The notes beneath the pieces are model-generated. The model did no database searches and was not told where the DNA came from. It saw nothing but the letters and a program-made list of their open reading frames with translations. Below are positions 7,686 through 57,900 of a DNA stretch of 64,000 nucleotides, in pieces. Every line of letters starts with the position of its first letter. Positions within the stretch are counted from its first letter, which is position 1. Source of the DNA: Dendronephthya gigantea (taxonomy: Eukaryota). A program made the position numbers and the translations under genes. Location of the stretch: positions 2,163,271-2,227,270 of the forward strand of contig NW_021163026.1 in NCBI RefSeq assembly GCF_004324835.1, written 5' to 3'.

Positions 7686-7810
7686 CTATCTCCGTCTTTT
7701 TCCTCGTTTTTTGTCCTGATTTTTCATCTTCCCCCGCAAATCAGTCTTCATTCTCGGATCAACCATTTTGAAAGGACCCTTCACGCCCGCGGGCCGTTTT
7801 GCTCGTTTCC
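7686..7810 (-). CDS. FTSJ3: FTSJ3 homolog terminal coding exon (basic C-terminus, TAG stop at 7688-7686)
   Basis: The acceptor is caacag followed by GGAAACGAG. It reads [41 protein letters not shown]. This resembles the conserved FTSJ3/Spb1 extreme C-terminus (RPAGV+G.FK.VD.RMK.D); that alignment is from memory. Confidence 0.6.
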
Positions 7811-10800
7811 CTGTTGATTAAATACGAAAAGATACGGAATGATTAACGACTTTTACTTTGTCGAGACAATCGTTAGTGAACTTCAATGGGAGAATATGGA
7901 GCTTCTCCATTATTATTTATTAAAACATACCGATTCCTTTCTTGGCAACGACGTATTTCACTTCAGGTTTCTTTCGTTTGCCAACTCCAGCTTTTTTATA
8001 CAGGCTAAGATTAGAGAGACGTACGTTAACCACACGTGGAAGAAAACTATTTCCCTAGTTCCGTCCACTATCAACAACATCATCCAACATTGCTATGATC
8101 GACACTATGACCAATATCATTCATCAATATTATAACCACTAATATCATCGTCATCACCGATATCATCATCACTATTGCTAATATTATTATCACTACCACC
8201 AATATCATCATCACAATCACCGATATCATCGTCGATATCATTATCACTACCACCAATATCATCATCACAATCACCGATATCATCGTCGATATCATCATCA
8301 CTACCACCAATATCATCATCATCATCATCACTGTCACTGATTACCATCACTCACTTCCTGAGCTGTTGTGCCTTTTCCTTATCCGTGACTTCATCGTTAT
8401 CACAAATAACTTCTGCCTTCTTCCTCGCTCTTTCAAGTCGTTTCATTTCCTTCTGTTTCTTCCTGGCTTTAGCCTCAGCTATTTTCTTGATTGGTCTGGC
8501 ATTGATCTCTCGTAACCTGGCCTTGTATTCCATTGCCTCTTCTTTAGTGACTGGCAGGTTACGCTGATAATGTTTAGCTTCATCCTGGGTGAACCATTCT
8601 GGTAGGTTATCATCGTTGAACGTCCACCTTAAATGTCAAGAAATGAATTTCAAAATGGAGGTCCAGTGTTGCAATCTAACGTGGTGGTCTAGTGTAGGTA
8701 GTATTCTACAATAAGCTATCGTGGTTTGTGTCTGAACTACCTGAAACTACAGTACCTGTGGTATGCCTCATCTTCGATTTCTCGCTTTCGTTTCTTAGAG
8801 AAAGCCATTTGCGCTCCAAGGGCAAGTCCTTCAGGTGTCATATTTTTCATAAGATCTAAATGTATATTTATTACTGATATAGTAAAGAGTTTAGAACTGA
8901 TAGAGCTGTCCAGTACAATTAGAATTAACTTTGTTCAAACGTACAATGTTGTGATACGACTTCAAATCCATTTTCAGATTTCGTGGTAACATCTGTCTCG
9001 TTCTGCACTTGTTCCATTTCATAATCGCTGTCGTCGGAGTCACTGTCGGAGTCGGACGATTTGTTGTCGGCCTGACTCGCTGCATTATCGGACCTCTTCG
9101 TCATCGTTTTGGTATCCTTATCTGAAATACAAAACGCAAGCTTTTGGTCCTTGGTATAATCAGGTAACGTTTGTTTCAATTACTAGCCATTATTGCATAA
9201 CCATCCATGTCAGGTGATTCACGTACTATCTCCCAAAAGAACACCACCAGCTTTTTTGTGCCTTTTCATCATTTGCTCCACCTCAAAATCCTCATCTTCC
9301 ACAGTTTCTAGACCTTGAAACATGTCCTAAACGAAGTTGCAATGATTAATGGGCGACGTCTTTATTGTATCTTCTGTTTCAAGATTTTTGGATTAACTTG
9401 TGTTTACACAATCATCTTTTGCTAAACACTTACTTTGCCAAACCAAAGTTTGGTTTTCGTTAGTTGATCAGTCTCTTCGTCTGGATCGACCAACAGTGGA
9501 TTGACATCATCATCATCATCTTCTTCATCATCATTGTCCTCGATATCCCCAGCGCTACTGTCCTCACTGTCCTCGACATCACTGCTATCCCCATCATCGT
9601 CCGCATCTTCAATCATATCTCCCTCATCGACCTTCTCCAAATTCTATGATCAAATATATATATCCATGGTCATGAAGTTTTGGAGAGATTGGGTGAACTT
9701 ATCTTCGGCGAGGTTACATGCAGCAATTCCTCACTCTTCAACAATTCAAATGAAATCCTATTACTTGGTATAACACACGGTGTACAAATCACACTGCCAG
9801 TCAAACAATCAAGTCCCTGATTTAGGAAACCCTTTGTGGTTTTCCAACGATACCAGCCAACCTCTCAAAATTCATCCCAAAATGATGAAAGAAAACCAAA
9901 CTATTATATTGCTCAGGAGAGTGAAGACAAAGTTGATTACTAAAGTCACCGCACCTTCTTACTCTTGATGTTGTTCAGCGAGAAGAGCTCAGCGTCATCG
10001 CCGTCAGCAGTCGCTCCACCACCAATCTGCATTCTTTCACGAGCCTGTTTCTTCATTGCAAACAACTTACGACGCTTTCTACACATTTCACAAGTCAAGT
10101 CATCATTCATGAACAATGAGAAAAAAGAATAAAAAACCCCGAATTCCTGGAGGTTTTGTTTACCTTTTGCCATCAGCAGTTTCCTCGTCTTTCAAATCCT
10201 GGATCATCTCGTCAACAGTTTTCTAAATCATCCAGGTTAGAAGGAATGATTTACCATTATTTGCAATCTCTATGCTAGTGTATTCTACCTATTGGGAGTT
10301 ATTGTCACTCAGAGTATCTCGGATTTACAAAAAACTCGAGGACAATGCGGCCTAGGAAAACGTGTTTTACTAGAATTATCTTTCCACACCTCTGGTGCAA
10401 CGTCTTCTTTGTCTTGCTCAGCGCTGAGGAAAGAAACGACAATATGACAGAAGATATTAAAGGTGTACTGATCACGTATTTATCTGAATAAAACAAAGTT
10501 TCCCAACCTCGTGTTTTCAGCAGGACTGTTTTCCAGATCATGCAACATTGCTTGCCAGTTCAACAATAATCTAAAGTGATATCCAAAGCTTACTTAAAAA
10601 CAGTAATAGCCGTCCGTATGCCGTTCAAAATGTACTTGAAGTTTCAGGCAAAACTATTCGCAATCTCTTCTGGATAATCTTAATTCAACTAACCTCACTT
10701 CCCCTTTTCCTAAAACTTTGATATCCTTGCAACATTCCTTGATTTCAGACGTGGTTAAATCATGTTGAAGATATCTTTTATCATCAAACACAATCTACAA

Positions 10801-12622
10801 CGGGACAGTGACAGTCCGTTTTTACACTCCTTATTTTAGCATTTCTCACTCTTCAGTTCATAGGAGAGCAGTTAGACGACGCTATCCAGTCTAGATAAAG
10901 AAATATACGCACCTGATTCACTGAGCTCAAAAGATCCAAGGGTTTTGCACTCTTCACAAACTCTGTGACTGCTAAAGTCTTGAACAAGCTATAGTCTCCT
11001 TCTTCATAGCCCTGGGCACGCGATCGTTTCTACAAGGTGCATATACTAGGCATTACTATATGACAAGATCTTACAGTTTATTGTGGAATCATGACCACTT
11101 ACTTTATTGCTGAGAAGACTAGCTTGTTTTGTAGGCTCTTGATTTACTTCTTCAAAGATGCACTTCCAATCAAGTAACTTTGGATCTATCTTGTCTGGAG
11201 CTTTATAACCCTAGATATCAACAACCAACATTCTCATTTACTGGTAAACCGACCACAGAGGTACCCAGATGTACCCATTCCTCACACTTCTTTACCTGAC
11301 AAACAACAAATATTTCTGCTGACTCATTACGCGAGGCTTGTGGCTTTGTTGCATGAACTTTCTTGAAGAGTTGATTGAAAACCCAGATCAATGGTTGGTA
11401 GTCTTTTGAGCGAAACACCTGAAAAACATATTTGTTTGCAGCAATTACAGATGATTCAGACAGACAAAGCGTTTTCTGTTTTGACTTTTTGAGCAAGTAA
11501 GCACAAACCTTTGTGACAAACCATCCTCCCTTGTTTAAGAAGTCGCATGCAAGCTTCAAAGCAGCTAGTGTCAGATGTGCTGAAATGAACAAGACAGACT
11601 GAATCAGCTGTGATGATCATTTCTTGGACAAGGATTTTCCTAAACAAACCTTGTGTGAAAGCATCATGTGCCCAGGCTGATCCAACATTTGGAGCACCGT
11701 CGTTTAAAACACAGTCAGCTTTCCATGTCTTGAGCTCTTTCTTTATGTCCTAGTATTGTTAAACAAGACTGCTGTATTTTTTTTTATTTGAGAGATGTTG
11801 TGACAGTTTTTAAACTTTACATTAGAGAAGTGACCATGTCATAGCAGTGTATATATTAGGAAGGTATTCATATTGATGAGGTACATGGGTGCTTCCCATG
11901 TTAGAGGGGTGTACATATTAGAGAGGTACCCATATTGGAGAGACATCCGTGTAGAAATGATATTTATTAGGAAGGGGGTTTGTAATGGGAGAATTCATAA
12001 CTGAAGAGACCTGTGTTGTTTACCTGCCTACATTTCTGTGTGGTGATATCATCTTGCAAAGTGATAACGTTTGCTATTGGTTTTATTGGGACTAAATCTA
12101 CACCTGAAATACAATAACATATCAAACTCTGTTAATTATAAATTTACAAATATCAAACTCTGTTAATTTTTGTAGGGTGATCCATTGCAACCCTGGGAAC
12201 ATGAGAGAATTACCAATGATGATGCTTGATACTGGCATAAATCTTGACGCAACCTGGAGCCTGTGAATGGTATGAAATATATTAGTATACGCAGCTCTGT
12301 CCTAGGATGAAATTAGACTTCTTGTTCACGAGTTGATTGTTGAGTTCCTGGATTGACTCACCATCCTCCTGGTGCCGCGCACAGGTCAATACAAACACGA
12401 GATGACTGTAAGAATTCAAACTTTCTATTCAACTGAATAAGTTTGAATGCAGAACGTGCTCGGTAACCTAGACAACAGATATACAGACTATAATATCTGA
12501 TCTCAATATGGCACTGGATGATGATGTCACATACATGACCATTACACACACATACCTGTTTCTTTTGCTAGATGATAAAATTTATCTCTTCTCTGTTTTC
12601 CAATTTTTCCCTTCTTACCCAT
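7686..12622 (-). CDS. FTSJ3: Multi-exon gene for the pre-rRNA 2'-O-methyltransferase FTSJ3/Spb1 homolog (start codon to stop codon; internal exon boundaries only partly resolved)
   Basis: Minus-strand exon 1 reads [23 protein letters not shown] and is followed by GTATGT. Exon 2 reads [36 protein letters not shown], the FtsJ AdoMet-binding N-terminus. Further exons read [33 protein letters not shown] (about 11640-11740) and [63 protein letters not shown] (about 11220-11590). Spb1_C-like exons follow at 8355-10200: [57 protein letters not shown]... The conserved C-terminal tail exons are listed separately. Confidence 0.85.
7931..8004 (-). CDS. FTSJ3: FTSJ3 homolog penultimate coding exon
   Basis: The acceptor is tcttag followed by CCTGTAT. 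It reads (N)[25 protein letters not shown], and the donor is ATCG|GTATGT. The phase matches the upstream AA|GTGAGT donor. Confidence 0.6.
8103..8340. repeat. Tandem repeat of 60 bp and 4 units; it encodes a poly-acidic DDDIG peptide on the minus strand but is interpreted as intronic
   Basis: The unit is caccgatatcatcgtcgatatcat(t/c)atcactaccaccaatatcatcatcacaatcac, repeated four times between 8103 and 8340. Confidence 0.85.
8355..8624 (-). CDS. FTSJ3: FTSJ3 homolog Spb1_C-like exon (upper boundary approximate); the apparent TGA stop is part of the GTGAGT donor
   Basis: The acceptor is atttaag followed by GTGGACG. It reads [91 protein letters not shown]. On the minus strand the TGA at 8353-8351 overlaps a consensus GTGAGT donor (AGG AA|GTGAGT). 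Confidence 0.6.
12362..12467 (-). CDS. FTSJ3: FTSJ3 homolog coding exon 2 (FtsJ methyltransferase N-terminal motif)
   Basis: The acceptor is ctag followed by GTTACCGAG. Completed by the G from exon 1, it reads [36 protein letters not shown]. The donor is GGATG|GTGAGT. The tracked ORF 12358-12549 extends past the true acceptor. Confidence 0.8.
12556..12622 (-). CDS. FTSJ3: FTSJ3 homolog coding exon 1 (ATG at 12622-12620 on the minus strand)
   Basis: The reverse complement reads ATG GGT AAG AAG GGA AAA ATT GGA AAA CAG AGA AGA GAT AAA TTT TAT CAT CTA GCA AAA GAA ACA G, followed by the donor GTATGTGTG. It ends in phase 1. Confidence 0.8.
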
Positions 12623-13361: not shown

Positions 13362-16300
13362 ATGTCTAGATTCTTCGCTGCTCGTTCATCTGGCAGCGAG
13401 GATGAATCAAGCGACGAAGCGCCAGTTGCTGTACCAAAACCAGCGCCCACAGTTGCTTCAAGGTTTGTTGAAAATCTACGTTTTATAATACTTCTGTGCA
13501 TGAGTCATATAAATATGACGAGTATTATAACGTAATGGATGAATGATTAATAAGGAGCACGTTTTGTTCATATTAAGCATAGTGTTTGCCTCAAAAACAA
13601 CAAATTACAGTATCAAATTTTAGTACAATTGTTGCACGTGATAGCTTGTATGAAATATAGCACTGGCAGACACGTGAAGGAGTTTATATTAGGTGAAATA
13701 AATATCCCAATGTGTTGCGAGGAAAAAATCAAATATCCTGCATGGTTTTGCGTTGTAAGCTATGAATATGGCAAGTTATTCTAGGTTTGGATGGGGTGAA
13801 GAATTATGCTGCATTGCCGCTTACCAAGATCCTCTTAACCGGAGTGTTTTTCACATTTGTCTCGGTTATCCGCAAGATGATTTGTTGTGTCCGATGCACA
13901 TGTTGCCATGCCATAAAACTGATCCCCCTCATAGGGCAGCTGTTTGTCATTTATGCCTCAACCAATATTTATGCCTCATCTAAATTCTTACAATTATGGC
14001 TAGTCTGTATCCTATGAGCTTTGCTAGTATGCCAGGCAGCAATTGTTTCCTGCTCACTAAGAGAAAACCTAACTCTGTGTGAAGGTTCTTCAACATTTGC
14101 TACACTGGAGGCCTATTTAGACTACACAATAAGTTGTATGCAATTATCATTCTGATGAATGCAAAAGAGGGCCTATGCCACAATCTTCATTCAGTTTTGT
14201 TCAGGTTTGAATTTAAAGTGTCACGTTTGTATGTGTGTTCATACGTTCACATATACCAGAGTACGAATCCTATGTGACAAAACGCATAGTGTAAATTGTC
14301 CTTAAATGATCCACCAGTGTGCTTATTTAATTCTCATAATCCTCCAATCAGGGCTCAGTTTCTGTTCAGTGACGAAGAAGATGAGGACACGAAACGCGTT
14401 GTCCGAAGTCAAAAAGACAAACGGTAAAAATGAGTTCACAACATTGGGCAGTGTGGAAAGGTTGGGAAAAGATGGCTTGGACACTGTTTTTATTGAATGG
14501 TTTTTATTTTTTTTATTTGCTGTAGATTTGATGAAATATCCAGCATTGCCAAGCAACTGAAAAATCACAAGAAAATCAAAGACATGTCCAAGATCCTGAC
14601 AGGTAAAGAGTAAAACCTCAATTGTAAATTTTAAAATCATATGCTGTAGAAATGTATACAAGATACATCTAAGCATGACAATATACCCATATTCAATGTT
14701 GCTTCATTCGCAGAGTTTGAAAATCTTGGTCGAGCATTCACGAAAGCAAAGAATGTAGTTGATAAGGAAGGAATTCCAACCACATTTATCAAATGTTTGG
14801 TGGAGTTGGAAGATTTCATCAAAGAGGTATAACACTCATTTAACAAAATTTTGCAGCCTAGGTTTTCCAGCCAGGGTTTCAACTGTGTAGGATTCAACCA
14901 TCTTTACCTGGATCACAAGTTTGCCACCAGGAATCATCGTCATATGTTCCATGTTAATCATTTGTTCTCTTAATTTTCATTGCAGAACTGGGAGGACACT
15001 GAAGGAAGAAAAAAGCTCAGCAAATTGAATGCCAAGGTCAGTGTAAAATCGTATGAATTACCGTATGACTCACTCTTGTTGATATGAATGAAAATCTGAG
15101 AAATGGGTATTTTTTTAGGCACTCACTGCTTTGAGGCAAAAGGTTAAGAAGTACAATAAGACATTTGAAAATGATATTGAGAAATACAGAGAGGTATGAA
15201 TGGAGTGGATTTGAAAAATAATGTTTCCTTTCTGGTGTTGTTAATTCATGAAATGTTGGTTGTTTTTAGAATCCACTCATCTCTGATGATGGTGAGGAAG
15301 AAGATGCTGGCAGATCAGGCAAGTGTTATAAATGGTTTGAATTGTTTTATTATTAAACAAGCCACCAGAAACCACAGATTAATAATGAAAAATCATGAAT
15401 ATTCATCATTTTACAATTCTGACAGATGATTCAGATGAGGATGATGACATCGTCTTGAAAAAACCTGAACCACAAGCTGCTAAACAAAAAGCAGATAAAT
15501 TTGAGGTATGCTGTTTGTGATATGGGGGCATTTGGTATTATCCCCACCCCTCTCAATGGGTAGCCCCTTGCCTCTTAAGAATTACCCTCATTTCAATGAA
15601 CAGTCTGTCTGCTAAGAACTGTGTTTGTTATGACAGGATTCAGACAGTGAATTTGATGATATGGACAGCGATGTTGAAACAGACAGCAGCAGTGATAGCG
15701 ATCTTGATATCCCTCAAGGGGGGAAAGTTACTGCTGCCATGTTCTTGAAGAGGTATAAACATCTTCAGTAAGGATCATCTCTTATTGATCCAGTTTTACT
15801 ACAGGACTTGATAACTGTATCAGTTCTAAAACTGTTCTTCCTAGAGGTCCAGTAAGGATCATCTCTTATTGATCCAGTGTTACTACACGAGGAAACCTAA
15901 ACTAAACTAACTTTATTTATACTAGATAGTTCTATCAGTTCTAAAACTGTTCTTCCTAGAGGTCCAGTAAGGATCATCTCTTATTGATCCAGTGTTACTA
16001 CAGGAGGAAACCTAAACTAAACTAACTTTATTTATACTGGATAACTCTATCAGTTCTAAACTGTTCTTCCTAGAGATCCAGTAAGGATCATCTCTTATTG
16101 ATCCAGTGTTACTACAGGAGGAAACCTAAACTAAACTAACTTTATTTATACTGGATAGCTCTATCAGTTCTAAAACTGTTCTTTTTAGAGGTCCAGTAAG
16201 AATCATCTCTTATTGATCCAGTGTTACTACAGGAGGAAACCTGAACTAAACTAACTTTATTTATACTGGATAGTTCTATCAGTTCTAAACTGTTCTTCCT

Positions 16301-19300
16301 AGAGGTCCAGTTAGGATCATCTCTTTTTGATCCAGTGTTACTACAGGAGGAAAACTCATACCATATCTATTTGTAGTTTTACTGCAGTAGGAAAAATAAC
16401 CTGAACTTGTTTTACTTCTGTGTTTCTCAGAGAACGGGATGAAGATGAAGAGAAAACTAAAGAGAAGAAACTTGAAAAGGAAAGACAAAAAAAACGCAGA
16501 CAAAAAGTGAAAGAAGATCAAGAAGAAGAGGATGAAGGAGAGGAATGGGAGCAAGTCAAATCATCTCACACCATTGTACGTGTTTGTTTCACGTTTTTTG
16601 TTTTATTTTCCTGACATATTTCTCAACGTCATCGTCTTCTGTTTTCAGGAGAAGACCAGAGCATTGTTTGCCAAAGACACAGAGATAAATCACGCCGTTA
16701 TTCTCAAGAAATTGCACGAGATTTTAGGAGCTCGTGGAAAAAAGGTTGGTTTTGTTGTGAGTTGATCTGCTGATCCTACAGGAACGATAGCGTCTCTTAA
16801 ATTATTTTGCTTTGTGTTTAGGGAACTGACAGAACAGACCAAATTGAGTACCTCAAGGATTTAAGAAAGATTGCAGAGAAAAACAACCTAGGTTAGTCTT
16901 TGAAATCAAGCTTTATTCTTCAGTATTTCAGGATTAGGGATTAATTTATTCTTCAGTATTTCAGGATTAGGGATTAATTTATTCTTCATTATTTCAGGAT
17001 TAGGGATTAATTTATTCTTCAGTATTTATGGATTAGGGATTAATTTATTCTTCAGTATTTCAGGATTAGGGATTAATTTATTCTTCAGTATTTATGGATT
17101 AGGGATTAATTTATTCTTCAGTATTTATGGATTAGGGATTAATTTATCCTTTAGTATTTATGGATTAGGGATTAATTATCCTTTAGTATTTATGGATTAG
17201 GGATTAAAAACCAACCAGAATCCAGGATTTATATCATTTTCTTGCCTTCCTCAGGTGTTGCAATGAGCATCAAGATCATGTTCAACATTATTGCATCCAT
17301 CTTTGATTACAACCCAAATGCAGCCACTTGTATGAAACCAGAAATGTGGAAAAGGTATGAGAGAGTCGACAGAATATAATGCTTACTGTATATTTCACGC
17401 TTGAATAAAACTAATTTTGTTTTACTGCTCAGCTCAGGTAATTTGATTTAGTGTTCTTCCTGCATGGTGATTCTGTAGCATTCCCTCGCATCTTTAGGCT
17501 TTGAGTTTGAACGTTGTGGTTATTTGCAGTATTTAGTAATATCCTGGCTTCTGTCTGCTTCATTTCAGTTGTCTGGAATACGTGAATGAATTGTTGATAA
17601 AACTCGTGGATAATCCTAACGTCACTGTGGGAGAAAACATCGCAGAAGATGCTGAAAATTTGGAGGTAACTTGAATTGAACAGGGGCCGGTTGTATCAAA
17701 CCCGTTTATCTAAAGGCCCTGTTACACGGTGCAATTTTTCCTGCAACTTGCAATGCAATTCTTCTTTTGAGGGATGTAAATTTGGCAACTACCAAACTTT
17801 CGTCTTTCTTACACTCCATGGCGTTTACTATGTATAGAAGTTTGCCCTGTCCTAATGCGCGTTTTTTTTCTAGGATGCGGACGCTGGGTTCAAAATTCGC
17901 GGTTGCATTTTGATCGCAATCGAGAGAACTGACGATGAATTCACAAAGATGTTACAAGGATGTGATTGTCATTCCACTGAGTATGTTGAGAGGTAAGCTG
18001 ACATAATTGAAGGATGAATTGTTTTCAGAGTGAAACCTATTCTTAGACCCCATTTTTCGGCCAATTCGACCATGGTCGAATTCGTCATTTTCCGGTAAAT
18101 TCATCCCTGCATTATGTGTAAATCTCTGATGATGTGTGATCAGGTATATCCATCATTTTCCTCCAGGTTGAAAGATGAGATTACTATGACCTTATTGATC
18201 AGCAGAGTTATGAAATATCTTGAAGACCACGATGCTGCTCCCAGCATGATCTGCAGAGTTTATCTCAGATTTATTGAACACATTTACTATAAGGTTAGTC
18301 AAAAGTAACTAGAATTTCCACCGTGTTTTTCCCTGATGCATTGCCAGGCACCCCGACGAGATTTCAAGGACAATTATCCTCGGGAAAGAGGGAGGTAGGA
18401 TAGATTGCTAGAGAGGAGAGAGAAGGGGGTTTTGTTACTGAAATACTTACCTCCAGCCTTATCCCCCCACAGCTTGACATGGTTCGTATGAAGGAAATGA
18501 GCGAGGAAAGGAAATTGAACAAAACTTCAGACGAAGAGGAAGTGTCAGTAGATCAAGCGGCAGCATCGACAGCCTCTCAGATGGAGGGAATGTGTCAGTT
18601 CATTTACTCCAAAGACGACTCGAACCGTATCAGGACCAGAGCGATGTTATGTCACGTTTATTTCCTCGCTCTGCATGATCGCTGGTACGAGGCACGTGAT
18701 CTCATGCTGATGTCACATTTGCAGGAGAATATCGGGCACTCTGATATACCCACACAGGTAGGTGGAATACTAATGACGACATTTTTGAACGGACTATCGT
18801 CACGTTGTTGGTTAAACTTAAACCTTTGTGTAGATTTTGTACAACCGTACCATGGTACAGCTTGGTCTGTGCGCGTTCCGTCATGGTATGATCAAAGACG
18901 CACACAACGCCTTACATGACGTACAGTCAAGTGGCAAGGCTAAAGAACTTTTGGCGCAGGTCAGTAGAAGATTTCAAACACATTCACTGTAAACACTGAT
19001 CCCTGGTCTTACTGCATTCATCATATGATAATAGGATCATCTCCAGAATCCACGGATATAATCCCAACTTTAATCCTAAGTCTTAGCCTAAGCCTTACCC
19101 AAGTACTATCCTTAAATGATTAGATTGAGGATTAGATTAAGGATGATCATATTCCTGGATTCTTGGCTTGGAATTATTACTACTTACTGTGTTTCACCCT
19201 ATCATTTGTTACCATTCCTATTATTAAAGCGATGTCTTTCCTCTTGTTTCTCCAGGGTCTAATGCAGCAGAGACAACACGAGAGGAATTTGGAACAAGAA

Positions 19301-25600: not shown

Positions 25601-27110
25601 GGCAGTCTTCAATCTGATATGACCCGCCAAGGAGTGAGTACGGTCAAGAAAGGCACATGTGCGGCATGTAATAAGCCAATCATTGGCCAAGTTTGTACGG
25701 CTCTCGGCAAGACGTGGCATCCGGAGCATTTCACATGTGTTGCATGTGAGTTGCCCCTGGGCTCAAGAAATTTTTTCGAAAGAGAAGGCAAGCCATTCTG
25801 TGAGAAAGATTACCATGAATTGTATGCTCCAAGGTGTGCTTACTGTAATGGCCCCATTCTTGATGTAAGTAGACAAGCCTTTGTTCATTTTTTTAACCAA
25901 ATTGTGTTGCCTTTACTGTGTTTGAAGTATAGAAAAAACGTCTCAATCCAAGGACATTTATTGAGAGAGACAACTGTAATTAACACCTTTATGAACTTGT
26001 ACATTTTTTAAAGTTCTGCTATTTTATACTCATATTGTTATTATCGCATACTATATCACTACATAGAAATGTTTGTGAACTTTGACTCATAATTAATAAT
26101 TATAAATTAATAGATGATGTACATATTGGTTAACCTATCAGTTGATGAAAAAAAACTTGAACATTTTATTTTTAGTCATGTGTAACTGCTCTGGACAAAA
26201 CCTGGCATCAAGAGCATTTCTTCTGCCATCAATGTGGCAAACCCTTCGGAGATTCTGGCTTCCACGAGCGAGATGGCAAGCCTTTCTGCAGAGATGATTA
26301 CTTTGCTGCATTTGCTCCCAAATGTGGTGGCTGTGAGCAGCCCATCATGGATAATTATATTGCTGCTCTTGGCCAGCATTGGCACCCAGAGTGTTTCGTC
26401 TGCTATGTGAGTATATTCTTGTTTATAAAACTCTGTATGATTTAATGTGTACATTGAATTGTTCCAGTAAGGGCCAGTAAGGATCATCTCTTATTGATCC
26501 AGTGTTACTACAGGAGCAAACCTAAACTAAACTAACTTTATTTATACTGGATAACTCTATCAGTTCCAAAATGTTCTTCCTCGAGGTCCTTGATCCAGTG
26601 TTACTACAGGAGGAAACCTAAACTAAACTAACTTTATTTATACTGGATAACTCTATCAGTTCCAAAATGTTCTTCCTTGAGGTCCAGTAAGGATCATCTC
26701 TTATTCATTATTAATACTAGCTATTTTTATCAGATCTAAACTATAATACTAATAATATTATAATAAATGTCTTCTTCCTAATCTTATTGATGCGTTTAGT
26801 GGGTGGCATAATATGAATTACAAAAACATTTTGTTATTTCTAGGAATGCCATCAGCCGTTCCCAGGTGGCAGTTTCTTTGAGCACGAAGGAAAGCCTTAC
26901 TGCGAGATGCATTACCACTCAAAGCGTGGTACATTATGTTACAATTGCCAGAAACCTATCACGGGTCGCTGCATCACCGCAATGCATCGTAAGTTCCATC
27001 CAGAACATTTCATCTGCGCCTTCTGTCTGAAGCAGTTGAACAAGGGCACGTTTAAGGAACAAAATGATAAACCTTATTGTCATACTTGCTTCGTGAAACT
27101 CTTTGGTTGA
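22595..27110 (+). CDS. PXN: Paxillin-family focal adhesion adaptor (LD motifs and four C-terminal LIM domains), 7 coding exons
   Basis: Exons: 22595-22607 (ATG GAC GAT TTA G|GTGAGG), 23485-23676, 24614-24688, 25132-25389, 25560-25864, 26176-26406, 26844-27110. They total 1341 nt, or 446 aa. The spliced N-terminus is MDDL|DALLADLQ, the LD1 motif. Further LD motifs are [36 protein letters not shown] and [13 protein letters not shown]. The LIM domains begin [30 protein letters not shown]..., [19 protein letters not shown]..., [27 protein letters not shown]... and [30 protein letters not shown]... Confidence 0.88.
26466..26710. repeat. Two units of the same 117-bp repeat family in a paxillin intron
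   Basis: The same unit sequence as at 15757-16350, with minor substitutions. Confidence 0.9.
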
Positions 27111-43500: not shown

Positions 43501-46446
43501 TTATAAAATACCACGCGACTATGCTCCGTTTGATCATCTCCTGAAAAGACTTGGCGCTACGGAGAAGATCTCCGCTTCACAAATGGCCAGTGTTCTCAAG
43601 TCTATCAAAGATTCTTCCACAGATGAAAAGATGAATTCTGAAGAAGAGGAAAAGGCGTGCTTTGCTACTTCTGTTTTGTTCAAATCACTCCTTGACGATA
43701 AAGAGACCGAAGCTGATTCAAGACTGGCAAATTGCGAGGAGCTTCTTTTGCCAAGCATGGCTAAACGACTCATAAGCTCCGACAAGTTGGTTTGTAAAAT
43801 GCAGCCCCGACTCCGCGAGTCAGTAGCGAAGCAAGGCTACGAGATTTTGATGCCTTTTGAAAAATGCGGAATGAAACGTGAGTTGGAAAACGACTATCTT
43901 CAAGCTCTTCCTAATCGTCTCCGGCCAACGCCGTTAAGCGAACTGGTACGCGAAGAGTTACATCCGCTGTGTAAGAAGGACATGAGTTGTACTTTATGCC
44001 TGGCGATGGATTACCATTCGTTTATCCAGAAGGTTCATTTTACTTTTGCGATCCTCGCAATTTGAGCGCGGTATCATACGGCTCTTGAAGCACCAGAAGG
44101 AATTGACAGAGCTTGATGAAAAAGACAGAGAAAGAGCCGCACGATTTACTTCAGCTAAGGTTAGTCGTCATGTTTTTCGAATTTTCTAATTCAAAAGTTC
44201 AGACACAAACCACGACAGCTTATTGTAGAATACTACCTACACTGGACCACCACGTTTGAGATCTCTTTCTCAGGTAGTTCAGACACAAACCACGACAGCT
44301 TATTGTAGAATACTACCTACACTAGACCACCACGTTTGAGATACCTTTTTCATGTAGTTCAGACACAAACCACGACAGCTTATTGTAGAATACTACCTAC
44401 ACTGGGCCACCACGTTTGAGATATCTTTCTCAGGTAGTTCAGACACAAACCACGACAGCTTATTGTAGAATACTACCTACACTGGGCCACCACGTTTGAG
44501 ATATCTTTCTCAGGTAGTTCAGACACAAACCACGACAGCTTATTGTAGAATACTACCTACACTCGACCACCACGTTTGAGATATCTTTTTCAGGTAGTTA
44601 AGACACAAACCACGACAGCTTATTGTAGAATACTACCTACACTGGACCACCACGTTTGAGATATCTTTTTCAGGTAGTTCAGAAACAAACCACGACAGCT
44701 TTTGTGGAATAAATAACACTTCTTTTCTTTGCATAAGTCTCTCTATTTCTATATTAAAGCTGACTACGATCAAATGTATGCAACAAGTTCAAATCCACCT
44801 TGTTAACGTATTGAAGGAAGAACCATTGCCAGGAAGCTCAGTCGACAGATCGTGTCATGTAGAAAAGGAAGAGAATTCCTGGACACTGTATATTCAACAC
44901 GAATTTGGAGGCAGAAAGAACCACGCCATCTTCGCGAAAGCTGTAAATGAAATCATGGACAGATGTTTAGAACAAACTGCCGAGTTAAGCGATATGCTCT
45001 CTTGCGACTCGCCTTCCCAGATACCAGGAGTACTTAACGACCATGACGTTGCGATTGATTATAACGAAGAAAATGAACAGTTTGGTCTTCCTGTGCCGGA
45101 TGTTTACCACTATCTCATTATTCAAAAACCACTCTGTAATTACGAGGAAGGAGCTCGGGTTGCCTATGACGAGGACGAAGGTAATAAAATATGAAATATC
45201 CAGTTAATAGTTTGAAAATCACTTATGTAAACACTGCATCTATTGTAATTTTTAAGATGTTTGTTAGTTTGTATCGCTTGAAGAAAGTGTGTAAGGTGGT
45301 GTTCCTCAGTTCTGAAGCCTTTCCCAATCTTTTAATGGTGGGTGAATATTATTTACAACCGAAATATTTACTAAGCACTTTTCTCTTTTGGTTTTTCCAC
45401 CAGGTTGCGCTGGAAATTGGAAAGAAAGCGAGCTAAAGGAGACATCGATTAGATACAAGTTCGTAAAGATCAACAGTCGTGCCAATGCTATTGACAAAGA
45501 TGCCAATGAATTCGACTTCAAAGCTCGGTACAAAATTGATCTCGGCAGCAAAACTGACTATAAAATAGTGAGTGTCCTTGATCTTTATAGTTACAAACAG
45601 AACGAGATGGGAAGTCTCGTTCCAGACGATGAAGATGACGAAAAAGTAAAAGTGGATGTTTTGGTAGAAAAATCTAAAATCACTCGGGCACTTAAACTTG
45701 CCAAGAACAACTTGGACTCATTAACACAGCGAGAAAAGGTGATAAGGCGTCTTTTCCTACATTGGCTTCGTTGTAAGGACTCTGAAACTGCAGATGAGAT
45801 AACCAAATTCATAGAAAATGAAGTCACAAGGCTGAAGATTCTGTGTCTGGAAGAAACGCGAGCCTTTTCAAGTTACTGGAGAAGTTATGGCAAACGTGAG
45901 AGGACGACATATAGAAGCTACAATCGTTGGACGTCGGTATGCGACAGTCCTGGCGGTTACCATGACAGCGGCAGTAATCGCGGTTACCATGACAGCGGCA
46001 GTCATGGTGGTCATTATGATCCTTGGGATTACGTAAGCCCCGATGCAAAGGAAGCAGAACGATGGATCAAGCAATCGCAAGCAGATTTGAATGTCGCCAC
46101 GTGGTTGCTCGACAAATCCTTTTCACAAGTATGTTATATGAGCCAGCAATGTGTGGAGAAAGTTTTGAAAGGTGTTCTGTACGCCAAGTGTGGAATACCA
46201 CGAGTGGAATTACGTACCCACCATATATACCGGCTTGTAAATGTATGCCGTGGCCTCGACGAAGCCCCAAGCGAAGCCCTGGATCGAGCTAGTAGCGTTG
46301 GAGGTTACTACCTTCCAACACGTTATCCTGACAATCAACCGCAGTATCGAGTTCCCGCTGAAGAATACACCGAGGAACAAGCCAAGCAAGCGTTAGATGT
46401 TGCTGTAACAATTTTTGCAGTTCTTGAAAAATTTGCCTTCAACTAA
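31502..46446 (+). CDS. SACS: Sacsin-like giant gene with three HATPase-like repeats, a degenerate J domain and a C-terminal HEPN domain (gene span; two internal frame discontinuities)
   Basis: Exons: 31502-31517 (MAEAV-), 31986-32077 ([31 protein letters not shown]), 32191-32449 ([16 protein letters not shown]...[14 protein letters not shown]-), a giant exon 32770-44065, then 44760-45180 and 45404-46446. Three repeat cores of the sacsin repeating-region type are present: [28 protein letters not shown] (32191-), [31 protein letters not shown] (about 36600), and [31 protein letters not shown] (about 39650). Each is followed by a ...FRFPLR... segment. The total is about 4400 aa, comparable to vertebrate sacsin. 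Confidence 0.8.
32770..44065 (+). CDS. SACS: Sacsin-like giant coding exon (about 11.3 kb), read as two ORFs split by an apparent 1-nt frame discontinuity at 35550-35567
   Basis: The acceptor gttag|ATCTGCC joins YHIT to [17 protein letters not shown] (sacsin has [21 protein letters not shown]). Frame 0 runs open from 32770 to the TGA at 35565-35567. Frame 2 runs open from 35468 to 44065 and contains HATPase-like repeats 2 and 3. The two frames overlap only across 35468-35567. The true 3' end of this exon is uncertain; see the findings. Confidence 0.75.
44198..44700. repeat. Tandem repeat of about 80 bp and roughly 6.5 units, immediately downstream of the sacsin giant ORF
   Basis: The unit is gttcagacacaaaccacgacagcttattgtagaatactacctacactggaccaccacgtttgagatatctttctcaggta. 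Confidence 0.9.
45404..46446 (+). CDS. SACS: Sacsin-like C-terminal exon with a J-domain-like region lacking HPD and a HEPN domain
   Basis: The acceptor ccaccag|GTTGCGC is in phase with the donor GACGAAG|GTAATA at 45180. It reads ...[25 protein letters not shown]... (vertebrate sacsin has [21 protein letters not shown]). It continues with [36 protein letters not shown], where the J-domain position has LRCKD in place of HPDKN. The C-terminus reads [20 protein letters not shown]...[14 protein letters not shown]...[14 protein letters not shown], a HEPN fold with the TRYPD signature of sacsin's C-terminus. Confidence 0.8.
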
Positions 46447-51906: not shown

Positions 51907-54900
51907 ATGTTTTCCAGTCCTTCGGTGGATAAAGAGAATGTTTTAGAAGAGGTAAATTTGTATTTTGCTGCCTTAGAAAGTTGAATTGAAAGATCGCTAT
52001 TTTAATGTGTGCATTGTTGATTGTTTTCATTATTTCTGTACTCTTTGATATATGCCTCTGATACTGGATGGTTTTGATAATTTTACCACGGTTAAACACT
52101 AGCAATACAGTGAATAGAAGAAATGAGTAAAATCATCTGGCATTAAAATACGAAATATATAAAATGGAGCAGTGTTAGAGTTATAAAGATATGGAGCATT
52201 GTTTGGCTGATGGCACAGCCATTGCACTAAGATGCATCTGCTTACTACCATGTTTTTTGCTTTTGTATAGATTTTTGCTACAACACCTGGCAGAGCACCT
52301 CTGAAGACTGTCCAAAAGGGAAGCATTGCAGCCGTGGGGACACCCTTGGGGATAGCGAAGAGAACACCAAGGCCAGGGTCTGCACATGCCACAACACCTA
52401 GTTTCCGTAGGCTGGCAAGAAGATTGAAACGACAGAGTGTACCGTTTGCTTTATCAAAGCCAGTGTCAATATTTGACAACAATGGAAAAGGTATCTTCAC
52501 AGGAAATCCTGTCTTTGAGGAAGGCGGACAACAATTGAAAAGAAATGGACCAGGGTTGAATGAAATGATACAAGACAAAGTCTCTGAAACTGTTATCAAG
52601 ATTAGGGAGGTATATCAATTAATATAATTATATAATTATCATTAGCAAACCATCATTATTATCACCAGTGATCATTACCATATGCCGCCCATCATCATAA
52701 ACAAAATCATATATTCTATAGAGGTATGAGGCAACCTTAGCTCAGAAACAACATGATCTTGATGAAAAGAATATCATGATCTCACAGCTACAATCAGAAA
52801 TCAGCCTTCTAAAACACTCTCACAATGACAGCCAGACACAGTCAGAAAAAGTAAACCAGGATTTGAGCATTTCAAACTTTGTGAATGAAGTAATCTCAAA
52901 GGCTGCTCAAGAGATCCAGAATGAAGATTCCACAGCAGAAACCTGCGACCTGCAACCTTCCTCTGTTGATTTAATACAAAATACCTCACCAGTAAAGCTT
53001 AGAGGTTGCTCAACTGCAATCACACCAACAAAATTGGTTTCTGCAGGAACATCTCCAATAAAACTTAAACTAACAGAAAACGAGACATCCATGACGCCCG
53101 TCTTGAAGATCCATGAAGCAACTTCGGTAACCCCGGTTGGAACAGCAGACGCAATGCTGGCAACCTCTCCTGCTTGTCTGAAAGATGCAGGAATTTCCAC
53201 ATCACCTTTCTGCCTGCTGGACTCAACAACAAACACATCTCATAACTGTTCACTCAACTCAGTGCAAGAGACCTCATCCACGAGCACCAAATCTGATGGA
53301 GAACACAAACCATATCCTGGATCTAAAGGCGGTAGCTCCATTCCAGATGGGAATGATACCGATCCATCCTTCAATTGTGCAGAAGAAACAGCAGTAGCTG
53401 CACCTATAAAACCGGAGCAAGATTTTGGAAGCCTGAATGTATCCTCACAGAGAGAATCCTGTGGGACCCCACTCTCTTCAATACATATAACAGATGCAGA
53501 TAATGGTCACGCCTTTTCCGACAATACCCTAAAGGAAATTGGAACATCAATGACACCCGTCACCCTAATACACAAACACACACTGGTGTCTCCAGTGCAA
53601 ACATCAAATGTATCAATATCCACCTCGCCCCTTGTTGCTGCTCTCCATCCAGAAATCATTACAAGCCTGCCACTCAGTCAACTCCGATCCGAACTAGAAT
53701 CAGCCGCAATCAGCAATGAGCTTCTGAGAAGCGAATGCGACGAGCTTAGCGCAAAGATTGAACTACTGCAGTCATCTGTCGACAAGGCAAGATCTGAGGC
53801 TGAGAGGAAATGTAGCTCAATGCAAAATGTGGTAGATTCTCTTACAAAAAAACTTGAAGAAGCTTTGGAGCTCAATGAGGATATGGAAAGGAAGAAGGTG
53901 AAATCGTTTATAAAATCACAATACAATACAGTTTTATTACTTTTCAAGTACTTTTATAATGGTACATGATTGAGAAAATCATAATCCCTTGGGTCAGCTC
54001 TATAACCTAGCCTATTGTACAACTGGCTAGAGTTTAGCAATTAAACTGCTGAACCGAGCTCGCCAGCCTGCCCCACTGCTAAACTCCAACTGTTCTCATT
54101 ATCATTACAGCCTTTGAACGCTGAGGAATATGACAAAACCATCAGCAGTCTGCAGAAAGATATCTTGTTGAAGGAGAAACAGATGACATTTTACATCAAG
54201 GTACTCGTGAGCTAAACTAGGTGTTGCTTGAAAAACATATGAAAACAAAAACCATGCATGTTATGATAGTTTCATAGGCCAGCACTGGAAATCGTGAACA
54301 CTTGAGCAAGCTGATTATGCAGTAATTTTTTGCATTGTATGTGTTAATTAAACAGAAAGCATCTGAAGCAGATAACTTACAAAAAGACTTGCGAAGAATG
54401 TATGCAAAATACAATGCACAGGTATGAATCATTGATACTGTTTAGTTAATATAATATACTATGCAACTCTATCTGTTTGTAGAGGTCCAGTAAGGATCAT
54501 CTCTTATTGATCCAGTGTTACTACAGGAGCAAACCTAAACTAAACCAACTTTATTTATACTGGATAGCTCTATCAGTTCTAAACTGTTCTTCCTAGAGGT
54601 CCAGTAAGGATCATCTCTTATTGATCCAGTGTTACTACAGAAGGAAACCTAAACTAAACTAACTTTATTTATACTGGATAGCTCTATCAGTTCTAAACTG
54701 TTCTTCCTAGAGGTCCAGTAAGGATCATCTCTTATTGATCCAGTGTTACTACAGGAGGAAACCTAAACTAAACTAACTTTATTTATACTGGATAGCTCTA
54801 TCAGTTCTAAACTGTTCTTCCTAGAGGTCCAGTAAGGATCATCTCTTATTGATCCAGTGTTACTACAGGAGGAAACCTAAACTAAACTAACTTTATTTAT

Positions 54901-57900
54901 ACTGGATAGCTCTATCAGTTCTAAACTGTTCTTCCTAGAGGTCCAGTGAGGATAATCTCTTATTGATCCAGTGTTACTACAGGAGGAAACCTAAACTAAA
55001 CTAACTTTATTTATACTGGATAGCTCTATCAGTTCTAAACTGTTCTTCCTAGAGGTCCAGTAAAGATCATCTCTTATTGATCCAGTGTTACTACAGGAGG
55101 AAACCTAAACTAAACTAACTTTATTTATACTGGATAGCTCTATCAGTTCTAAACTGTTCTTCCTAGAGGTCCAGTGAGGATAATCTCTTATTGATCCAGT
55201 GTTACTACAGGAGGAAACCTAAACTAAACTAACTTTATTTATACTGGATAGCTCTATCAGTTCTAAACTGTTCTTCCTAGAGGTCCAGTAAAGATCATCT
55301 CTTAATGTTACTATTATTTTCAGCACCAGTCATACATGACAATGGAAGAAGAAACGAAGAAACTCAGTGAGAACTACAGCGCAAAGTGTGTCAACTACGA
55401 CGCATTACAAAGTGAACTTTGTGACGTGAAAGTTGAACTACAGCAAGCTCTTCAGGAGATTGAGGCTCATGGTAAAGTCAGGGAGGAGGCTAAAGAGCAT
55501 CAAGTGAGATGCAGCATTCTTGAAGAACAGATTCAGGTTTGTCTCAAATAAGTAGATTTGTATTTTAAACCCCCAACTAGGGCGATTCGGAAGGTTAATA
55601 AGAGAAGCACTTGTTGGAGGTGATACAGGGTCAAGGGCCAGGGCAGACGTATCCATCCATGAAATTTTTCTTGTGTGCATTTAACCGGCATTTTCTTCCT
55701 CTTCAAATTCTTCAACATTCAGAGCTCTAGCTGAGGTGCCGGGAACCGACTTATAAATAGTAGAACCACATTTCTCGATCAACGTATTTTTTCAGCAAGT
55801 ATAACAGCATGGTATTTTTATCGTTTATTACATTCTCCTGAAAGCGACACTTTCTTTGCAAAGTCTTGATGTAAACTGAGTTATCGCGGATTTCTGGTGC
55901 AAAGTTCTCGAGCGTCTCCGTCGGGATTCTCCTAGCAATGACATCAAGTATTTTCTCAAGTGGTAACTCGTGACGTGCAGCGTAAGGAAGAAGACGCAAA
56001 GTATTTTCGGGCTCAAGATTCCCAGCTTCATTCATACATCGCTTTATGACATCTATCGCTGTGTATTTGTCAGCGATCTCGAGAATATCGAAAATATTGT
56101 CATCGTCAATTTCTACAATTTCATCGCCCAGCATTATCGTTGGATATAATAACTTGAGGAATTCATTCATAGCAAAATAGTCATCGTCTTTTAACTCGAT
56201 TCTCTCCTGTGTTGCATCCTTGAAGTTGCCGTTGAACATCGCTTCAAACACAGGTGACTGCAACGACAGAATGTAGCGATGGACATGAAGCTCTTTGCTT
56301 TCGACCACCAACACAGCATCGCTCCTTCGCCATGGTTTTGAAAAAAAATCATAATTTTTTTCCCCCATATTTACGTTCATGTATACTGTAATGTACTCGC
56401 TTTCATGAAATGTTTTCAAGAAGTCAGAATGTAATATGACTCTTTGTGAGCCATTTTCGTTCGGGTAGGCACTTAGGGTAGGCTAATCGGGACACACATC
56501 AATGACACACGTTATTTCAACTTAGTAACGGCCACTGGTAACGGCACGTCTTTTATGAGTTTTATCGTAATTGAGTTATAATGTAAGATATTATCATGGA
56601 CTTTGACTTATCTGTTTCATATTTTTACAGACCTTCCAATGCCAGCAGAGAGAGAATCTGGAGTTCTTGGAGCAAGAGAGAAAAGGACTGGAAGAGACAA
56701 GCCTTGAGTTGGAACAACAAGTAAGCGTCACTTTGTGAATCGAGAAGAGTTCATTGCCCAAAACAAAAAATTTGATGGTGAGAACTCGTGCATCATGTAA
56801 CACCAAACGTCAAATTCAAGAATTTCCGTCTAGTTCCAGTCGGAGTAACTCCATACAAAATTCGTATTTTCAATGTTTTCCTAACATCATTCACTTCCTG
56901 CCATTGTCATCTTATAAATGAAAGCCGGCAACTGCTAGGTTTACTACGAGTACGGTCCTTAATTCAAACCATTTTACGCTTCTTTTAAAGGTTAAAAGGC
57001 TTTCGGAAGAACTAAGTTTGGCGCGTCAGGCTTTTGAGGAAAAGTCACGACTACACGAGGATACGAGTGACACTGTGCGTCAATTACGGTACGTTCAACG
57101 GTTCACGTTTTGTTCGTTTCCACAGCAACACGGGAGTGAAACGCTAACTTCAGCACTATACTTGGTTGAACCAAAAATAAGTGATTTGAGTTTTTGACTC
57201 TGTTTCTCGTTAAGAATTTAGCAAATGATTGTATTTTACATAGTTCTAGACATTCCTAGATAATTCCTCTCTACGTCTGTCTTAAACGTTCAAAAACCCA
57301 GAAAAACTACGCCAAGTTAGCGTTCCATGTTCTAGCTATTACACTGACTCGAAATCATCAGTTTTCCTCCAGTAATGGCAGTGTATACTTACAATCCACA
57401 GGAGTCAACTATCTGACGTCCAGGATGAACTGAACGCTGTACAATCTCAGGCGTATCTGCTCATGTTGGAACAAGAGAAAGAATTGACAGCTGCATCGAG
57501 AGTTCTGGAAGACACCTGGGAACGACTTGTGCCTGTCGTCGAGACGTATAAAGAACGTGCCAAACAACAGGAGGAGGTAAGCGTAGGAGGGACCCCCCGA
57601 CCCTCTCTCCACCTGGGACGTCACTCCTTCCCCGCACACACCCACTAAGGAGCCGTAAGACTTTCATTGCAATTTTTTTTATCATTTTTTTAGCCGACAG
57701 TGGAGAAAAATAGCGAAGAAATATTAGGGAACGAATACAGACCATCGTTTGTGTATTCTGTCCTGGCAGCTGTTTCAGGATCCGTGCCAACGGTAAGAAC
57801 ACATCGCGCACACCAAGTTTACCCAATTGCCATGCACTAGCTGTCTTCCCCTCGAGATTCAGAAATTGAGCAGTTTTAAACATGATAGAAATAGAAGACA

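Follow-up and report, generated by a model that had tools for sequence, protein, structure and literature searches.

The 3' end of the FTSJ3 gene in this stretch of DNA is very probably an ordinary one, in which a normal phase-2 intron carries a minisatellite. The initial annotation had pointed to a stop codon embedded in a splice donor and followed by an in-frame repeat, and it had read this layout as one that could support two C-termini. The stop arises automatically when a phase-2 intron has a GTRAGT donor, and it is no termination signal. Two biologically meaningful C-termini are not supported by any feature setting this intron, intron 19 of the gene, apart from other introns. The apparent "stop plus in-frame repeat" arises from the splice-site consensus and from the register of the repeat, and it matters little in itself. 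What the analysis does confirm is that the 3' end of FTSJ3 is modelled correctly.

FTSJ3, or Spb1, is a pre-rRNA 2'-O-ribose methyltransferase and a pre-60S assembly factor for the 60S ribosome. The gene at 12622-7686 on the minus strand of the window (the whole 64,000-nucleotide stretch that was analysed) is an FTSJ3/Spb1 orthologue. Its model was built by hand from stop-to-stop open reading frames (ORFs), splice-site scores and homology. The features of the gene, together with the corresponding donors in related lineages, are collected in Table 1.

Table 1. Features of the FTSJ3 gene and of its intron 19, and intron 19 donors in contigs of relatives (L numbers). Positions refer to the window; a slash marks a splice site.
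Feature	Position	Strand	Description
FTSJ3/Spb1 orthologue, complete coding region	7686..12622	minus	21 exons, 20 GT-AG introns, 752 aa
Intron 2 donor	12356..12363	minus	TG/GTGAGT; phase 2; W then TGA, amid the SAM-binding motif CAAPGGW
Intron 13 donor	10158..10165	minus	AG/GTAAAC; phase 2; R then TAA
Exon 19	8355..8627	minus	Spb1_C core; ends KEKAQQLR plus AA of a split codon
Intron 19 donor	8349..8356	minus	AA/GTGAGT; phase 2; first intron G = 8354; TGA = intron bases +2 to +4
Intron 19	8005..8354	minus	350 nt (3n+2); longest of the gene's 20 introns
Minisatellite	8181..8321	minus	54-bp unit (GATGATGATATTGGTGGTAGTGATRATGATATCGACGATGATATCGGTGATTGT); 2.6 copies, 97% matches (Tandem Repeats Finder)
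Intron 19 3' end	8005..8029	minus	branch-point-like TTAAC 8029-8025; pyrimidine-rich CGTCTCTCTAATCTT; AG 8006-8005
Exon 20	7931..8004	minus	completes Asn; ends with G of a split codon; kept in relatives
Intron 20	7811..7930	minus	120 nt; phase 1; G/GTATGT...ACAG/GG; read-through GMF then stop
Exon 21, coding part	7686..7810	minus	basic tail; stop TAG 7688-7686
Donor in L001-L006, L012, L013			AA/GTAAGT; read-through K TAA
Donor in L010			AG/GTAGTT; read-through R TAG
Donor in L007			AA/GTACGT; read-through 10 codons then stop
Donor in L009			AG/GTATGT; read-through 8 codons then stop

The 752-residue model translates with zero internal stops. Three Pfam families are found along it: FtsJ (PF01728, SAM-dependent methyltransferase) in the N-terminal part (E = 3.4e-53, profile positions 1-181 of 181), the Spb1-specific DUF3381 (PF11861) in the centre (E = 1e-37), and Spb1_C (PF07780) extending to the basic tail (E = 4e-69, profile positions 2-213 of 216). 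The Spb1_C match is obtained in this form only with introns 19 and 20 removed. Human FTSJ3 and yeast Spb1 have the same three-domain architecture, and the human protein (8fkp_SJ; PDB 8fkp chain SJ) aligns with the full model from residue 1 to the last (E = 2e-218). The window protein is shorter than its human counterpart (752 versus 847 amino acids) because its acidic low-complexity middle region is shorter. At the C-terminus there is no difference between the two, and the alignment takes in the tail of the form KYVVAKKG.G....RPAGV.G.FK.VD.RMK.D.R.

Without splicing, the minus strand at the end of exon 19 reads GCA CAA CAG CTC AGG AAG TGA, with the TGA at 8353-8351. This stop does lie inside the AA/GTGAGT donor, as had been annotated. 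By splice-site scoring, the acceptor of intron 19 has the top score, and AA/GTGAGT ... TCTCTCTAATCTTAG/CC is the top-scoring frame-compatible pair of donor and acceptor. The TTAAC upstream of the acceptor is a candidate branch point. Intron 19, whose donor resembles the consensus and whose acceptor is rich in pyrimidines, appears to be a U2-type GT-AG intron; its composition is C-poor (8% C, 29% G).

The initial annotation had joined 8354 to 8004. The acceptor side of this junction stands, and the donor side has to be moved by one base. The last exon base is 8355, which makes the junction 8355^8004; joining 8354 to 8004 would read AAG CCT GTA TAA, which is a stop. The next join, from 7931 to 7810, is retained as proposed; the boundaries of the last two exons read TAG/CC, CG/GTATGT and CAG/GG.

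Splicing at these sites restores the conserved basic tail, and the two downstream exons (8004-7931 and 7810-7686) encode it, as had been suggested. In the spliced product, the last 156 residues line up gap-free with residues 692-847 of human FTSJ3 over both junctions (E = 3e-47). At the intron 19 junction itself, the window residues stand opposite human QLRSLYKKAGLGK with no gap. The spliced tail also aligns to the tails of yeast Spb1 proteins. Its closest named match in a protein search is a sponge protein, at 57% identity; the genome is of animal type and rich in introns.

Part of this tail has been assigned a role in the human protein, where residues 808-847 are a putative NLS (Morello et al., PMC3241699). 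The basic tail of exon 21 corresponds to this segment. The unspliced product would end at position 160 of 216 in the Spb1_C profile and would be without the region that matches the putative NLS.

When proteins were searched with the spliced tail, many short ORFs of close relatives were returned (86-92% identity), and their contigs were retrieved. Exon 19 is likewise 86-92% identical at the protein level to the counterpart exon in L001-L010. The position of intron 19 and its phase 2 are common to L001-L006, L007, L009, L010, L012 and L013. At least five related lineages are represented among the eight independent contigs that share position and phase. Where the tail is assembled (L001, L005, L006, L009 and L010), the downstream exons have 82-83% protein identity, and they are thus coding in those lineages. 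The L007 contig contains a poly-C run, and for the junction of exon 20 and intron 20 it offers no GT in a compatible phase; the ORF of the last exon is nevertheless conserved.

Among the relatives, the splice sites are the only conserved sequence of intron 19. The stop is not conserved as a stop. It follows whatever the donor sequence dictates, and is read as TGA, TAA or TAG, or is not immediate at all.

The reason for the stop lies in the phase of the intron. The last codon of exon 19 is split after its second base and GTGAGT opens the intron, so the unspliced reading is AAG TGA. Any codon split after its second base and followed by a GTGAGT or GTAAGT donor gives NNG TGA or NNG TAA. An in-frame stop arises from GTGAGT or GTAAGT in every phase-2 intron (Mekouar et al. 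2010, PMC2911113). The layout of these introns is identical to that of intron 19, with no difference between them. The stop-in-donor layout is already known as a generic property of such phase-2 introns, and a special status for this site is not supported.

The same gene provides internal controls, for which the donors of introns 2 and 13 were used. Both share the stop-in-donor layout, which is thus found in three of the six phase-2 introns of FTSJ3 (2, 13 and 19). Retention of any one of the 20 introns stops translation, and in 11 of the 20 it does so within 10 codons. Stops created by GTRAGT donors should not be taken as alternative C-termini without transcript support.

Splicing of intron 19 in the window species is predicted from homology and from the transcripts of relatives. 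The spliceosome would remove both intron 19 (350 nt, 8354-8005) and intron 20 (120 nt, 7930-7811), and the spliced mRNA would encode the full 752-residue protein with its conserved basic tail, including the putative nuclear/nucleolar targeting stretch. In unspliced FTSJ3 transcripts a premature stop would lie some 420 nt upstream of the last exon junction, and such transcripts would be expected to be retained in the nucleus or degraded, as with any intron. Some intron-retaining RNA is surely made, again as for any intron, and nothing singles out intron 19 in this respect.

The tandem repeat within intron 19 is real. An exact 24-mer occurs at 8320, 8266 and 8212, a spacing of exactly 54 bp, and 100 shuffles gave 0 matches. 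The array is a minisatellite, a class of tandem repeat with units of about 10-100 bp. It had been described as a 60-bp unit present four times; Tandem Repeats Finder and the 24-mer spacing give instead a 54-bp unit in about 2.6-3 copies. It sits in a looser triplet tract of the GAT/GGT type, at about 8120-8335, with a sub-period of about 21 bp.

Intronic minisatellites and VNTRs that originate from triplet microsatellites offer a close parallel: here, too, the 54-bp units are built from GAT and GGT and lie head to tail, with 97% identity. The array would be a neutral intronic minisatellite, grown from the GAT/GGT triplet tract beside the donor. It would have no coding role, and its Asp frame would be an accident of register. 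An origin as a dispersed repeat or transposon was considered and rejected, since a search of the window for further copies of the 54-bp unit found none.

A C-poor tract rich in GAT and GGT adjoins the donor in three lineages, namely in the window, in L001-L006 and in L012/L013 (GCA_949826985.1). L007, L009 and L010 lack it. In the sister lineage, intron alleles of 121, 196 and 226 nt are found, which differ in the repeat tract, and the higher-order unit is 15 bp, versus 54 bp in the window. These length alleles and the 15-bp unit are observations on the sister lineage. The minisatellite in intron 19 is fast-evolving.

Counted against the ordinary reading, the persistence of the C-poor GAT/GGT tract in three lineages is compatible with some role in cis; the persistence of microsatellites explains it equally well.

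Past the TGA, the exon frame runs on through 77 codons. It is Asp-rich, with in-frame repeats of the DDDIG type, as had been noted, and ends in NIDE before a stop. A frame encoding Met, Val and Ile is open in the same repeat for 86 codons. A repeat based on GAT leaves two frames out of three open. The expectation is therefore that some open frame follows the stop in about two cases out of three, and that this is the Asp frame in about one case out of three. With the Met/Val/Ile frame equally open, the open frame past the TGA is uninformative.

Comparison with relatives bears on the same question. The exon frame reads the tract as Asp in the window and as Gly/Asp in the L005 allele; in L001-L004 and L006 it meets one stop after another, and in L012 and L013 it gives Met/Val. 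An indel of a single nucleotide flips the register between alleles of one lineage. The poly-Asp frame is not conserved, either across lineages or across alleles.

Stop-codon readthrough had been proposed as a way of appending a poly-Asp tract. Under this explanation, readthrough of the UGA at 8353-8351 on an unspliced mRNA would add an Asp-rich tail of 77 residues, for which the open frame past the TGA gives the necessary room. The Met/Val frame of the repeat is no less open, however, and the mRNA would in addition have to be both unspliced and exported. Programmed readthrough is found in animal genes with the sequence UGA-CUAG, a known readthrough-promoting stop context. What intron 19 shares with these genes is an open frame after a UGA, and only superficially so. 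Its context is UGA-GUGA, in which a G follows the UGA, and its extension is intronic and unconserved in frame and sequence. The exon frame of relatives meets stops (L001-L004, L006) or runs into Met/Val (L012, L013), one indel is enough to change it, and no Pfam family matches the Asp-rich translation of the repeat. The comparative data make readthrough very unlikely, and the chance that it adds such a tail is close to nil.

Transcript-like contigs show splicing at the intron 19 position in relatives. Contig L011 (Logan SRR30948333) is 99.9% identical to L009 (SRR30948331), except that a 79-nt intron is missing from it. L011 reads ...CAACAGCTTAAGAG/TTTGTATAAGAAAGC, exactly the predicted intron 19 junction. 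In L014 (ENA ERZ1738539), a contig of another relative, the identical junction is seen, and both contigs are joined at ...QQLK/S/LYKKAG.... These two joins in relatives agree with the proposed splicing from the donor to 8004, and the restored tail agrees with both that join and the one from 7931 to 7810. A search of the protein and contig collection for the exact 60-residue exon ORF of the window found no match.

L009 retains the homologous 79-nt intron, and four or five neighbouring 3' introns are gone from it. The retained intron counts against the ordinary reading, since it could mean that this intron is removed slowly or is kept more often than the others. An unspliced upstream intron is present in each of L009, L011 and L014, and the simplest reading of all three is partly processed pre-mRNA in assemblies derived from RNA.

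This observation is the starting point for an explanation by regulated retention, in which intron 19 is "detained". The intron would stay in a considerable fraction of the transcripts. Retention would lower the amount of FTSJ3, either through nuclear detention or through NMD, or it would give a protein of 687 residues without the basic tail and the putative NLS. The G/T-rich repeat beside a slightly weak donor would tune splicing. Several facts agree with this. L009 keeps the intron when its other 3' introns are gone and the contig from the neighbouring run, L011, is spliced; the C-poor tract adjoins the donor in three lineages; and the tail that would be lost would hold the putative NLS of the human protein (PMC3241699). 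Intron 19 also has A at donor position -1, where the consensus has G, and no other intron of the gene is as long. These last two features count against reading it as an ordinary intron, and they are, like the persistent tract, weak cues.

Other facts point the opposite way. The unspliced upstream introns in L009, L011 and L014 resemble generic, partly processed pre-mRNA. The species of L009, which keeps the intron, is wholly without the repeat tract. L007 and L010 are without it as well, and in the lineages that have the tract, its length and unit vary. Apart from the splice sites, no sequence of the intron is conserved. Regulated retention is thus an improbable explanation. The possibility that, in this animal lineage, intron 19 is slowly spliced or detained, its transcripts being an NMD substrate or the source of the NLS-less 687-residue protein and the repeat modulating its splicing, is distinctly unlikely. 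If it were true, length alleles of the minisatellite could change how much of this ribosome-biogenesis factor is made.

A further route to a shorter protein would be polyadenylation within the intron. A cleavage site just past the TGA would produce a short mRNA for an isoform ending in ...AQQLRK, and the stop at the first codon of the intron would give that mRNA a clean end to its ORF. Yet intron 19 (8354-8005) contains 0 of nine common types of poly(A) hexamer, AATAAA and ATTAAA included. Beyond the stop of the gene, downstream of 7686, AATATA and CATAAA hexamers lie at 7657-7601. The product would also be without one third of Spb1_C and without the basic tail, both of which are conserved from yeast to human. 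Intronic polyadenylation is highly improbable here. With a stop and an Asp frame that are unconserved in relatives, and an intron without a poly(A) hexamer, the suggestion that the layout supports alternative C-termini finds no support.

Two other candidates for a function of the repeat were tried and rejected. One was an intron-hosted snoRNA. The repeat contains UGAUGA motifs that resemble a C box, and the Rfam C/D-box hits to it stay below threshold, with 20.5 bits where the gathering score is 41 and 14.3 bits where it is 39. These hits are due to the UGAUGA strings of the repeat, and no Rfam family reaches its gathering score anywhere in the window. The other was a gene on the plus strand over the array, where every ORF is a low-complexity artefact produced by the repeat.

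The donor stop also leaves its mark on sequence records. Several ORF records of relatives end exactly at the exon 19 donor (P0044, P0050, P0053 and P0056, and the cluster members P0123-P0129). Prokaryote-style ORF callers cut exon 19 short at this stop in many metagenome records, such as P0044, P0050 and P0123-P0129.

FTSJ3 contains candidate alternative splice sites in introns 18 and 19. Two donors that are in frame with each other lie 15 nt apart in intron 18. The first is backed by transcripts of relatives, and use of the second would insert the residues RYCSF. In intron 19, a weak alternative acceptor precedes the real acceptor by 42 nt and is in frame with it; its use would result in a 14-residue insertion. 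Its pyrimidine tract is poor, it scores much below the real acceptor, and it has no homology support.

A canonical AATAAA hexamer is located 9 nt into intron 20. Because this intron is AT-rich, the hexamer is probably due to chance. If intron 20 is read through, the protein ends in ...KKGIGMF*.

Simple and tandem repeats are found both in the gene and elsewhere in the window. The coding (GAT)n run of exon 15 forms the poly-Asp part of an acidic region, and its triplet type is identical to that of the array in intron 19. Elsewhere in the window an 80-bp satellite is tandemly arrayed, and a 61-bp stretch of intron 18 matches its unit at 97% identity. Intron 17 holds a 25-bp fragment of a 115-bp satellite family that forms three arrays in the window. 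Another tandem repeat, with a 33-bp unit, can be translated in one frame as 11-residue-type repeats; it is probably non-coding.

Contigs of related lineages provide further observations on the gene. All three cDNA-like contigs (L009, L011 and L014) start inside an unspliced upstream intron, with the downstream introns removed. Such starts could possibly reflect a 3'-first order of splicing, pre-mRNA, or an internal start; a CRE-like motif, TGACGTCA, is present in the upstream part of L011. In another relative's contig, L007, intron 20 contains a run of about 29 C, and exon 20 is without a phase-compatible GT donor. Together, the poly-C run and the missing donor may be an assembly artefact. Finally, tandem genes for EF-hand proteins (186 aa) lie downstream of FTSJ3 in the relative assembly GCA_949826985.1, represented by contigs L012 and L013.

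Features of the window and of relatives' contigs (slash, splice boundary)
Feature	Position	Strand	Details
Intron 18, paired donors	8740-8756	-	
Intron 18, donor 1	G at 8755	-	CAG/GTACTG
Intron 18, donor 2	G at 8740	-	CAG/GTAGTT
Intron 19, alternative acceptor	8046 (region 8005-8046)	-	AAATAG/TT
Intron 20, hexamer	7916-7921	-	
Exon 15, (GAT)n	9505-9534	-	
80-bp satellite array	44196-44711		6.5 copies
Intron 18, 80-bp satellite copy	8678-8738		
115-bp satellite arrays	15806-16353, 26474-26705, 54480-55304		up to 7.2 copies, 94-97% identity
Intron 17, 115-bp satellite fragment	8890-8914		
33-bp tandem repeat	16912-17207		9 copies, 95% identity
Unspliced contig starts	L009 1-100, L011 1-235, L014 1-118		
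Poly-C run	L007 2395-2423		
EF-hand protein genes	L012 9385-9945 and 11646-12201, L013 9020-9580
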